64,000 bases of DNA from Candidatus Gottesmanbacteria bacterium (GTDB lineage Bacteria; Patescibacteriota; Microgenomatia; UBA10105; UBA927), in assembly GCA_023245355.1 (NCBI GenBank), contig JAHFKN010000002.1, positions 136,460 through 200,459 of the forward strand. The letters run 5' to 3'. Positions 61,226 to 62,963 of the stretch are shown one piece after another. A program made the position numbers and the translations under genes. Below the pieces are notes generated by a model. That model ran no database searches. It had not been told where the DNA came from and was given only the letters and a program-made list of their open reading frames with translations. The first letter of the stretch is position 1. Each line of letters starts with the position of its first letter.

Positions 61226-61870
61226 ATGAATACCCAAACAACCTCGGCAACAACTTCGACATACGACAGGGTAATCAGAATTGCTCTAAAGCAAAAGCTA
61301 ACAACTGAGCTAGCATCTTATAGGCTAAAAAGTAAGTGTCCTGCTGACATAATTGAAGAATTAGGAGTAAAAAATGGGGCAGTTAGAATTGATATGGCTG
61401 TGGTCAACGGCATTATGCATGGTTATGAAATAAAAAGTGATCGTGATACATTGCATCGACTCCCTAATCAAATGAATGAATATAACAAGGTGTTCGATAA
61501 AATTACTCTAGTTGTTGGTATTAGCCACCTTCACGAAGCTATAAATCTTATTCCGGATTGGTGGGGTCTCAAGCTTGCTAAGATTAATCCCAATAATGAA
61601 GTAATTTTTTATAACATTAGAGAGGCAGAAAACAATAGAATCCAAAATGTAATTTCTGTGGCAAGATTATTGTGGAGAGAAGAAGCTTTACAAATACTAG
61701 AGGAAAAAAATATGGCTCGGGGTGTACGCTCTAAGTCTCGTGAAGAAATATATAAACGGTTGGCAGAAGTTGTAGAAATTGAATTTCTTAAAGAAAAAGT
61801 TAGGCAGACGTTACTGACGGCACGGGAAGATTGGCGATTTGGAACAAAACCAACATCATATGGTGATTGA
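61226..61870 (+). CDS. PD-(D/E)xK nuclease-fold protein of unknown function (possibly sce7726-like)
   Basis: RIDMAVVNGIMHGYEIKSDRD gives the D...(E)xK catalytic-core pattern. No other recognisable domain. Confidence 0.5.
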   Translation: MNTQTTSATTSTYDRVIRIALKQKLTTELASYRLKSKCPADIIEELGVKNGAVRIDMAVVNGIMHGYEIKSDRDTLHRLPNQMNEYNKVFDKITLVVGISHLHEAINLIPDWWGLKLAKINPNNEVIFYNIREAENNRIQNVISVARLLWREEALQILEEKNMARGVRSKSREEIYKRLAEVVEIEFLKEKVRQTLLTAREDWRFGTKPTSYGD

Positions 61871-62963
61871 TACACCAAGCTATCCAATCTTCGTTACTAC
61901 CTGTACCTGACTGAAGCTTTTCTTTGATATACTTTTTAAAATAGTCTGCTTTTTCTGATATTTTGGCGTCACCCCAACTAAAATCTGAACCATAATAGTA
62001 TTTAGAACCTACGAGTAAGTTGGCATTTGCTAAATACAGATCAAATTTTCGTTTCTTTCCTTTCATAATTAACCAATTGTCTTCGTGGGTGTATTTAATA
62101 CTTGTAGTTGGATCAAAATATTGTAAGGCTTCCTTAAATACAGGATTTCTAATCGTATAGTCCGAAAAAATAGGCATTCTTACATGTTTATTTTTTCTAG
62201 CATTTAACCAGTATTGCCAATCAACTCGCGGGAGCGGAGTTAGCTCTTCAAATTTACAGTCGTTTAGATTTTCGGGAAAAGCGCCACTAGTGAAAATAAA
62301 ATGTTTCCAGTTGATTAGGTTTTCAATTTTTTGCCCTAAACTAAAATAGAATGAATATTGACCGATATCACCATCAATTGCTTTGATATCAATCAACAAA
62401 TCTGTTGTTGCTACACCTAGATTAAATTCTAACAGGAAAGCATCTATTTTCTCATTTAAAGTCTTCACGTCGGTCAAATCAGATTGCGTGATCCTGAGAC
62501 AAAGTCCTAAATTATGTTTACCAGACAATTCACAGATGGCTTCCTTTATTCGCTTATCATCATTCAGATTAACAACGGGAATAAGATTTAATCCTTTTTC
62601 TATTCCAATGTGAAGAATCCTATCAATACTTTCTAATTTCAATTGGATAGTATCATGAGGATCATGTAGAAGCGTAAAATCGACATATACTTCGCTTTTA
62701 CCCCAAGATTTCAATATTTCTTCAGGAATTTCTATTATTTTCTGTTGCTTAAATTTGTTAACAATCTCGGAGGTCATCTCATCGGGCGTTTTCTTAACTT
62801 TTACTTTCTCTATCTTTTTATAGAGAGAAACAGTTGGCATAACCAACTCTAATAACGGTCTAACTCCGCTTTTATCCGTTAATTCTTGAAGCGCTCGTTG
62901 TTCCGCCCTTTTCCATTTTAGTATGGGAACATAATTAATCATGTTGTTTATTTTTACTCCCAA
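61800..62963 (-). CDS. hypothetical protein of unknown function, convergently overlapping 61226-61870 (possibly sce7725-like)
   Basis: 387-aa ORF with AT-rich codons. Its 3' end overlaps the plus-strand gene by about 70 nt. Confidence 0.5.
   Translation of the reverse strand: MGVKINNMINYVPILKWKRAEQRALQELTDKSGVRPLLELVMPTVSLYKKIEKVKVKKTPDEMTSEIVNKFKQQKIIEIPEEILKSWGKSEVYVDFTLLHDPHDTIQLKLESIDRILHIGIEKGLNLIPVVNLNDDKRIKEAICELSGKHNLGLCLRITQSDLTDVKTLNEKIDAFLLEFNLGVATTDLLIDIKAIDGDIGQYSFYFSLGQKIENLINWKHFIFTSGAFPENLNDCKFEELTPLPRVDWQYWLNARKNKHVRMPIFSDYTIRNPVFKEALQYFDPTTSIKYTHEDNWLIMKGKKRKFDLYLANANLLVGSKYYYGSDFSWGDAKISEKADYFKKYIKEKLQSGTGSNEDWIAWCINHHMMLVLFQIANLPVPSVTSA

Follow-up and report, generated by a model that had tools for sequence, protein, structure and literature searches.

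We report that a 64,000-nt stretch of a Candidatus Gottesmanbacteria genome (contig JAHFKN010000002.1; hereafter the window) carries near its right end what we interpret, with a probability of about 70%, as the conserved cII/beta core of a mobile anti-phage cassette of the PD-lambda-2 type. A plus-strand gene of the phage P4 cII-like (sce7726) family and a minus-strand gene of the beta family converge here and share an ancestral dual-coding 3′ overlap. The locus is typical of a large, horizontally spread PD-lambda-2-type subfamily, for which we infer a mechanism below. As far as we found in the literature, the conserved fourth gene and the antisense dual-coding lock are undescribed. The features on which the argument turns are as follows.

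61226..61870, plus strand: cII-like / sce7726-family gene, 214 aa; predicted PD-(D/E)xK (MmcB-/RecB-like) nuclease with a C-terminal helical domain
61800..62942, minus strand: beta-family gene, PD-lambda-2_C, 380 aa; predicted TIM-barrel-like protein (387 aa if the TTG at 62963 is taken as the start)
61800..61870, both strands: dual-coding 3′ overlap, comprising the last 23 codons plus the stop of each gene
61823..61841, both strands: core of the overlap, encoding R-E-D-W-R of cII at 61823-61837 (plus) and Q-I-A-N-L-P of beta at 61824-61841 (minus)

A first-pass annotation of the window had described two open reading frames (ORFs) that overlap by about 70 nt at their 3′ ends. The list of ORFs places the plus-strand frame at 61226..61870 (214 aa, ATG start) and the minus-strand frame at 61800..62963 (387 aa with a TTG start), and the true overlap, 61800-61870, is 71 nt. 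On an identical metagenome contig, L001 (window coordinate = L001 coordinate + 51225), the gene caller puts the beta start at ATG 62942, giving 380 aa; the TTG start at 62963 lies seven codons further upstream and is probably too long. The 71-nt overlap is unaffected by this choice because only the 5′ end of beta is altered. The overlap also survives the test for an earlier true stop or a mis-extended call. The C-terminal helix of beta (residues 350-370) is confident in the AlphaFold2 (AF2) model, the conserved QIANL of beta reaches nt 61827 and the near-invariant W203-R204 of cII reaches nt 61837, so that both proteins have conserved residues within the shared stretch, which an earlier stop cannot abolish. 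The same sequence was independently assembled in three public samples. The initial observation is thus confirmed, and is stronger than first stated.

The arrangement is conserved far beyond chance and persists through divergence to ~25% identity. A scan with the cII alignment, taking one genome per species, gave 80 loci spanning Patescibacteria, Planctomycetota, Gammaproteobacteria, Bacteroidota, Chloroflexota, Acidobacteriota and others, and hidden Markov models (HMMs) built from our own alignments recovered the order cII -> <- beta - B - A, where B and A are the two remaining genes of the cassette described below, in 79/79 loci with enough DNA. When phage and plasmid loci were added to this set, 90/90 were convergent and 89/90 overlapping, with overlaps of 12-107 nt (mode 50 nt) whose length equals 2 mod 3 in 87/90. 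In 81 of the 82 loci where it could be measured, the Trp codon of cII and the His361 codon of beta are spaced by exactly 28 nt, and this register holds in E. coli Rac-SA53, in mycobacteriophage Mycofy1 and in Rhodococcus, Agrobacterium and Acinetobacter plasmids, whose proteins show 23-42% identity to those of the window. A reciprocal, beta-centred scan of metagenome contigs returned 80 loci, 76 of them with downstream DNA; a convergent overlapping cII was present in all 76, with an overlap of 50 nt in 61 and the same frame in 75/76. Where enough upstream DNA was available, B was found in 59/59 and A in 57/57. The two sets combined give a convergent overlap in 165/166 informative loci. Furthermore, 13 of 14 plasmid beta matches overlap a cII-like gene, and most of these pairs are labelled 'beta family protein | sce7726 family protein' in RefSeq; the plasmids that carry them belong to Rhodococcus, Agrobacterium, Rhizobium, Sinorhizobium, Bacillus and E. 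coli. The pair is found as well in E. coli phage Rac-SA53, mycobacteriophage Mycofy1 and Gordonia phage DumpsterDude. All betas of the overlapping type have PD-Lambda-2_C as their best PADLOC model, and P4 beta goes to a separate 'beta' model.

A single stretch of ~20-26 nt encodes the best-conserved C-terminal motif of both proteins. On the cII side this motif is S-R-x-D-W-R, and on the beta side Q-I-A-N-L-P forms the end of the last helix; the nucleotide consensus of the core, GATTGGCGA, is strongly conserved across 84 loci. The antisense frame is such that third codon positions in either gene lie opposite second positions in its partner. Where residues are identical, a smaller fraction of codons differs inside the overlap than elsewhere (cII, 0.34 against 0.61; beta, 0.417 against 0.585), a drop in synonymous codon differences that is consistent with a double constraint. 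The stop codons are embedded in the same way: the modal beta stop, TAG, reads on the cII strand as CTA, which lies within the Ser-Arg codons TCT-AGG, and the modal cII stop, TGA/TAA, sits in the reverse complement of the beta Ile-Asn codons (ATY-AAY) of 'INHH'. In the window cII reads Ala-Arg (GCA-CGG) at that position; the beta stop is therefore lost and seven extra codons (VPSVTSA) follow, giving 71 nt instead of the modal 50. At the level of sequence, the 3′ overlap is shown to be an ancestral dual-coding segment. Beyond W-R the cII tail is predicted by AF2 to be disordered, and it is only two residues long in some relatives.

A perfect 9-bp inverted repeat, GAAGATTGG/CCAATCTTC, is present in the window at 61826-61834 / 61884-61892; it results from the Glu-Asp-Trp that each gene encodes at this place (cII REDWR, beta NEDWIAW). 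A conserved hairpin or bidirectional terminator at this repeat was ruled out, the pairing being of 3-9 pairs across the 84 loci.

The restriction-endonuclease-like core that had been noticed in the 214-aa protein is borne out. The motif RIDMAVVNGIMHGYEIKSD contains the invariant D56, E68 and K70, and E45, D56, E68, K70 and Q82 are invariant in 71 sequences, including the P4, Rac and actinophage homologues; Q82-xxx-Y/F86 forms a further motif. The AF2 model (predicted local distance difference test, pLDDT, 86.8) has the element order alpha-beta-beta-beta-alpha-beta, with helix 12-36, strands 41-47, 54-60 (bearing D56) and 64-70 (E68-x-K70), helix 79-87 (Q82-xxx-Y86) and strand 92-97, after which comes the C-terminal helical domain. 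In BFVD, Foldseek matched the model to phage proteins labelled MmcB-like DNA repair, Exo VIII PDDEXK-like or Mrr, at E-values of 1e-13 to 1e-2; against the Protein Data Bank (PDB) it gave weak matches to SfsA, XPF and a splicing endonuclease (best E 0.01), and a sequence search for a solved structure of the cII family gave no significant match. Membership of the PD-(D/E)xK superfamily is supported by motif and predicted fold, and the protein is a predicted nuclease. Its kinship with sce7726, which the first-pass annotation had suggested while naming an NCBIfam search as the check, is established by that search: NF033832 (sce7726) matches at 159.4 bits against a cut-off of 70, over profile positions 2-181 of 184, and the match stops at 61819 (plus). 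The PADLOC model 'cll' matches at 5e-26. No model in the Pfam library searched here matches the protein, and a precomputed match to PF26915 Phage_P4_cII is on record for the identical protein. The cII of satellite phage P4 carries the RefSeq annotation 'sce7726 family protein'; sce7726 is therefore the P4 cII family.

The minus-strand protein had been regarded as a 387-aa product with no recognisable domain. This is refuted by its match to Pfam PF14350 Beta_protein (E 4e-57; 194.5 bits against a threshold of 27), which covers profile positions 1-341 of 342 and ends at 61845 (minus), and by its match to PADLOC PD-Lambda-2_C (E 3e-37). In the AF2 model (pLDDT 91.3; predicted TM-score, pTM, 0.91) strands and helices alternate as in a (beta/alpha)8 barrel, and Foldseek against the PDB returned generic TIM barrels alone (IspG, aldolases, DERA, OMPDC), at E 4e-4 to 1e-2 and with low TM-scores. 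Beta is confidently predicted to have a TIM-barrel-like fold, with the conserved polar residues D88, R150, D185 and D261 at predicted strand ends and H360-H361 in the last helix. Sequence search found no solved structure for the beta family, and a viral-contig scan with a single beta protein as query gave no matches. A '2TM-beta family protein' met in the literature is unrelated to beta.

Two further genes lie upstream of beta on the same strand.

62954..64000, minus strand: 3′ part (337 of 404 codons) of a gene joining an Xre-type helix-turn-helix (HTH) and an M78 (ImmA/IrrE) peptidase, PD-lambda-2_B, assigned by PADLOC and Pfam
Outside the window, equivalent of 64184-64462, minus strand: HigB-like gene, PD-lambda-2_A, 92 aa; PF09907 HigB_toxin, 2e-25, on L001

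The B protein matches PADLOC model PDLC03982 at 4e-113 (the C model, matched by beta, is PDLC03984) and carries the Pfam domains HTH_3 and Peptidase_M78, the latter also matching the PADLOC capP model at 3.7e-9. On L001 the gene is full length at 404 aa, extending to the equivalent of window nt 64168. The intergenic gaps are 15 nt between A and B and 11 nt from the B stop to the beta ATG. As A, B and C all lie on the minus strand with family matches, the locus holds a complete PD-lambda-2 operon plus a convergent cII-like gene. A tblastn search of B against phages gave matches limited to the HigB/HTH immunity-region genes of Stx phages. In the list of ORFs, B appears as a 337-aa frame from the internal ATG 63967, and its HTH domain is only partly inside the window. 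Directly upstream of the HigB-like gene lies a 144-aa ORF (L001 13389-13823, minus) with no Pfam, PHROG or PADLOC match.

The sce7726/sce7725 pairing, of which the convergent pair was reminiscent, had been called uncharacterised and of unknown function. This is outdated, as the pair belongs to two validated anti-phage systems (PMC9122126, PMC9519451). A functional selection yielded PD-lambda-2 from E. coli ECOR42, and the system shows an abortive infection phenotype (Vassallo et al. 2022, PMC9519451). In E. coli, B is toxic when overexpressed and is neutralised by A, and C (beta) is needed for defence (PMC9519451); the ECOR42 clone spanned 228989-232396, with the system at 229385-232009 (supplement of PMC9519451). 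The gop-beta-cII block of P4, for which Ghisotti et al. 1990 is the source cited in PMC9122126, protects against lambda and P1, and Gop is toxic without beta (Rousset et al. 2022, PMC9122126). A phage accessory gene, orf184, triggers cell death via gop-beta-cII (10.1101/2023.04.06.535777). Our literature search found no paper giving a biochemical mechanism for beta or cII, or linking cII to PD-lambda-2.

By analogy with E. coli PD-lambda-2 and P4 Gop-beta-cII, we propose that the cassette would work by abortive infection. The A/B module may act as a toxin/neutraliser pair or as an infection-sensing switch, its M78 peptidase resembling CapP, the regulator of cyclic oligonucleotide-based anti-phage signalling systems (CBASS). 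Beta would be a component required for defence, and the cII-like protein is predicted to be a metal-dependent DNA nuclease, serving as effector or as DNA sensor jointly with beta. The overlap would be kept mainly because neither C-terminus can alter or separate without harming the other gene, and it would lock the two genes into obligate co-inheritance.

Several facts weigh against this proposal and temper its reach. The sampled loci are kin by descent and horizontal transfer, so the counts given above are not independent events, and the nuclease activity of cII and the enzymology of beta are predictions. Satellite P4 has lost the overlap, which is therefore not indispensable for a working system. 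The modules are separable: A and B occur without beta/cII on Acinetobacter and Limnohabitans plasmids, and cII and beta occur without A/B in Rac-SA53, on an E. coli plasmid, on a Rhodococcus plasmid and in actinophages. Solitary cII-like genes are found in the early operons of phages Mx4 and Bacillus phage Edson, as well as on Deinococcus and Paenibacillus plasmids. Finally, the ECOR42 clone extends only ~396 bp past gene C, too short for an intact convergent cII (~600 nt), and yet it defended; if ECOR42 has cII, defence against lambda-vir is therefore not strictly cII-dependent. As to related arrangements, an Agrobacterium variant combines another small gene with Xre-M78, beta and cII, and in Rac-SA53 and Mycofy1 the region upstream of beta was searched for a small toxin gene, with no convincing candidate.

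That the overlap is an artefact of a mis-extended or frameshifted ORF call, or of a sequencing error, has practically no chance of being right. The two family-profile matches do end without touching, at 61819 and 61845, and the 387-aa call does use a TTG start that is probably seven codons too long; however, three independent assemblies agree, the stop codons are unambiguous, and the conserved residues of both proteins inside the overlap, together with the arrangement in 165/166 informative loci, have already refuted it. A more serious contender, although a tentative one, is that the overlap was selected mainly as a regulatory device, an antisense switch between the beta operon and a toxin-like cII nuclease. 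Its retention throughout those loci, in many phyla, would suit a switch. No intrinsic terminator is present in or near the overlap, and the 3′ transcript ends are therefore complementary over at least 26-107 nt if both genes are transcribed; in P4, the one lineage that has no overlap, a terminator lies precisely in the intergenic gap. Against this stands the lack of any conserved RNA structure: RNAalifold on the overlaps of 84 loci gave no consensus on either strand (mean z -0.5), and the z-scores of -1.5 and -1.0 for folding of the window overlap are unremarkable. Promoter and terminator scans around the overlap gave chance-level signals. None of the structure, promoter and terminator scans found evidence for a regulatory role of the complementary ends, and the switch is a candidate mechanism. 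Moreover, the length of the overlap varies and only the dual-coded core is fixed, as protein constraint alone predicts.

Two other alternatives concern the partnership of the four genes. The locus might consist of functionally unlinked neighbours, namely a HigB/Xre-M78 toxin-antitoxin-like pair beside a pair of cII as toxin nuclease and beta as antidote. The separate occurrences of A+B and of cII+beta listed above would agree with this, as would the fact that P4 beta neutralises a different toxin, Gop (PMC9122126). We consider it unlikely, since within this subfamily all four genes occur together in 79/79 loci with enough DNA (B in 59/59 and A in 57/57 of the beta-centred loci), only 11 nt separate B from beta on their common strand, and PD-lambda-2C (beta) is needed for defence by the A/B/C operon in E. 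coli (PMC9519451). Comparably improbable, in our judgement, is that cII works in the DNA metabolism or lysogeny of mobile elements, as a repair or recombination nuclease of the MmcB-like kind, and is not a defence effector, its link to beta serving the life cycle of the element. The P4 name 'cII', the structural neighbours annotated as MmcB-like DNA repair and Exo VIII-like, the solitary cII-like genes of phages and plasmids, and the defence conferred by an ECOR42 clone that is probably without intact cII all speak for such a role. Against it, the window gene lies on a non-phage island beside an Mrr-like nuclease and a PD-lambda-2 operon, the three-gene gop-beta-cII block gives phage resistance (PMC9122126), and cII is present at every sampled PD-lambda-2_C-type beta locus with enough downstream DNA. 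We retain the reading of the locus as the cII/beta core of a PD-lambda-2-type cassette. A bolder extension of it, rather unlikely in its entirety, would make cII the overlooked fourth PD-lambda-2 component, probably DNA-targeting, with beta/cII as the universal core of PD-lambda-2, Gop-beta-cII and sce7726/sce7725(-RES) and with the antisense 3′ ends acting as a switch via the Xre-M78 sensor; here, Xre-M78-driven induction of the beta operon would alter cII expression via convergent transcription or an RNA duplex.

The cassette rides on an integrative island of ~9.3 kb, whose repeats in the window are the following.

58889-58905, plus strand: att-like direct repeat GCTCCCCCGGTAGGATT, which reproduces the 3′ terminus of a tRNA-Asn outside the window and marks the left edge of the ~9.3-kb island; counted as an 18-nt repeat it lies at 58888
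57464-57480, plus strand: second copy of the att-like repeat (57463 for the 18-nt repeat), bounding a ~1.4-kb remnant

The island is deduced from the following evidence. The GC content, 48.5% for window 1-57000, drops to 35-37% in the cassette and the genes around it; the repeat has 2 matches in the window against 0 expected, and its copies come with a 111-nt duplicated flank; the tRNA-Asn lies at L001 16934-17006 (equivalent of window 68159-68231), beside a 563-aa serine recombinase; and another metagenome-assembled genome (MAG) shows 81-86% DNA identity from window 59044 through the serine recombinase. Among the neighbouring genes, one at 59502-60626 (minus) encodes a 374-aa protein whose N-terminal half is coiled and which carries an Mrr_cat restriction-endonuclease domain and, at its C-terminus, a 'sunset' domain. 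Directly upstream, at 60629-60976 (minus), lies the gene of a 115-aa protein that is membrane-anchored and bears a C4 zinc ribbon of the topoisomerase type. The two genes, conserved in a related MAG (L007), may form a second defence pair on the island. Three tandem ~35-nt repeats (consensus ...GGTTTTTTGACACGATAAAAAGGAA) lie at L001 14159-14293 (equivalent of window 65384-65518), flanked on one side by a small HTH gene and on the other by the genes that lead up to the serine recombinase; they resemble operator or iteron sites of the island.

In Gordonia phage DumpsterDude (L102, MT024859.1), a full-length cII-like ORF at ~2420-3100, on the plus strand of the locus, is unannotated, a small opposite-strand gene 32 being annotated instead. 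This ORF converges on and overlaps gene 33, of the beta family (E 1e-22 with our own beta HMM), and Powerball shows the same pattern of matches.

PD-lambda-2 and Gop-beta-cII are validated anti-phage systems that have been catalogued as unrelated three-gene systems. Our comparisons suggest that they, together with sce7726/sce7725, share a two-gene core, made up of a PD-(D/E)xK nuclease-like and a TIM-barrel-like protein, to which interchangeable toxin or sensor modules are joined. They further suggest that the PD-lambda-2 type normally has a fourth gene, omitted by current definitions and probably by the original clone. The catalytic triad of cII and the strand-end Asp/Arg/His residues of beta emerge as targets. 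The overlap itself is a rare long antisense dual-coding segment found across Proteobacteria, Actinobacteria and their phages, Patescibacteria, Planctomycetota and Bacteroidota, and it is useful for studying the mutual constraint of overlapping genes and for improving annotation, as with the cII-like ORF missed in Gordonia phages.

The likeness to the sce7726/sce7725 pairing, which the first-pass annotation had proposed, stands in part. The sce7726 assignment is true, and the first gene of such pairs is of the same family as in the window (sce7726 = P4 cII-like). The partner fails the sce7725 model: as a member of NCBIfam NF033831 it was rejected, with no match even at E <= 10, and among 16 beta homologues one matches that model, at E 0.099. 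The kinship is remote, as judged by profile-profile comparison of sce7725 with beta (hhalign probability 76%, E 2.4e-5, 208 columns); several sce7725 proteins carry PF14350 matches, and the two families have the N-terminal motifs YxPIxKxKxxExxAL...PxIE and (A/G)DYTI in common. On these alignments sce7725 is a remote relative of beta. Its proteins are of ~300 aa, against 380 aa for the window beta, and in true sce7726/sce7725 pairs both genes run in one direction, overlapping head to tail by 20-43 nt (Moraxella osloensis pYHS1, an Acinetobacter chromosome), whereas the window pair is convergent. On pYHS1 (L092 3255-6093) the co-directional operon runs sce7726 - sce7725 - RES-family NAD+ phosphorylase, which suggests that a cII/beta-like core may also couple to an NAD+-degrading toxin.

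Compared with nucleases of the MmcB-like and RecB-Cas4 types, cII shares the predicted PD-(D/E)xK core and the E, D, ExK and Qxxx(Y/F) motifs; unlike them, it has an extra C-terminal helical domain ending in S-R-x-D-W-R, and it is without Fe-S cysteines. In CapH/CapP (CBASS), ImmR/ImmA and DdrO/IrrE, an HTH repressor is cleaved by an M78 peptidase on DNA damage. Like the CapP-type regulators, B joins an Xre-type HTH with an M78 peptidase; unlike CapH/CapP, ImmR/ImmA and DdrO/IrrE, it has both fused in one 404-aa protein, with a HigB-like partner.

The P4 Gop-beta-cII locus, which is anti-phage and toxin-antitoxin-like, has the same convergent layout, cII -> <- beta(-gop), with a cII of the sce7726 family and a beta of PF14350. 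The two P4 genes do not overlap, however, being separated by a 27-nt gap that holds a terminator, and P4 cII has a long extra C-terminus. P4 beta scores 621 bits on the PADLOC 'beta' model, whereas the window beta falls under PD-Lambda-2_C, and the window proteins are only 21-26% identical to their P4 counterparts. A phmmer search with P4 Gop among 86 loci gave P4 itself as the sole match; in place of P4 gop, the window locus has the HigB-like and Xre-M78 genes. The closest likeness is to PD-lambda-2 (PMC9519451), with the same three genes in the same order on a single strand: HigB-like A, Xre-HTH/M78 B and P4-beta-like C. As published, that system consists of these three genes, whereas the window and all sampled relatives with enough flanking DNA add a convergent cII that overlaps C.

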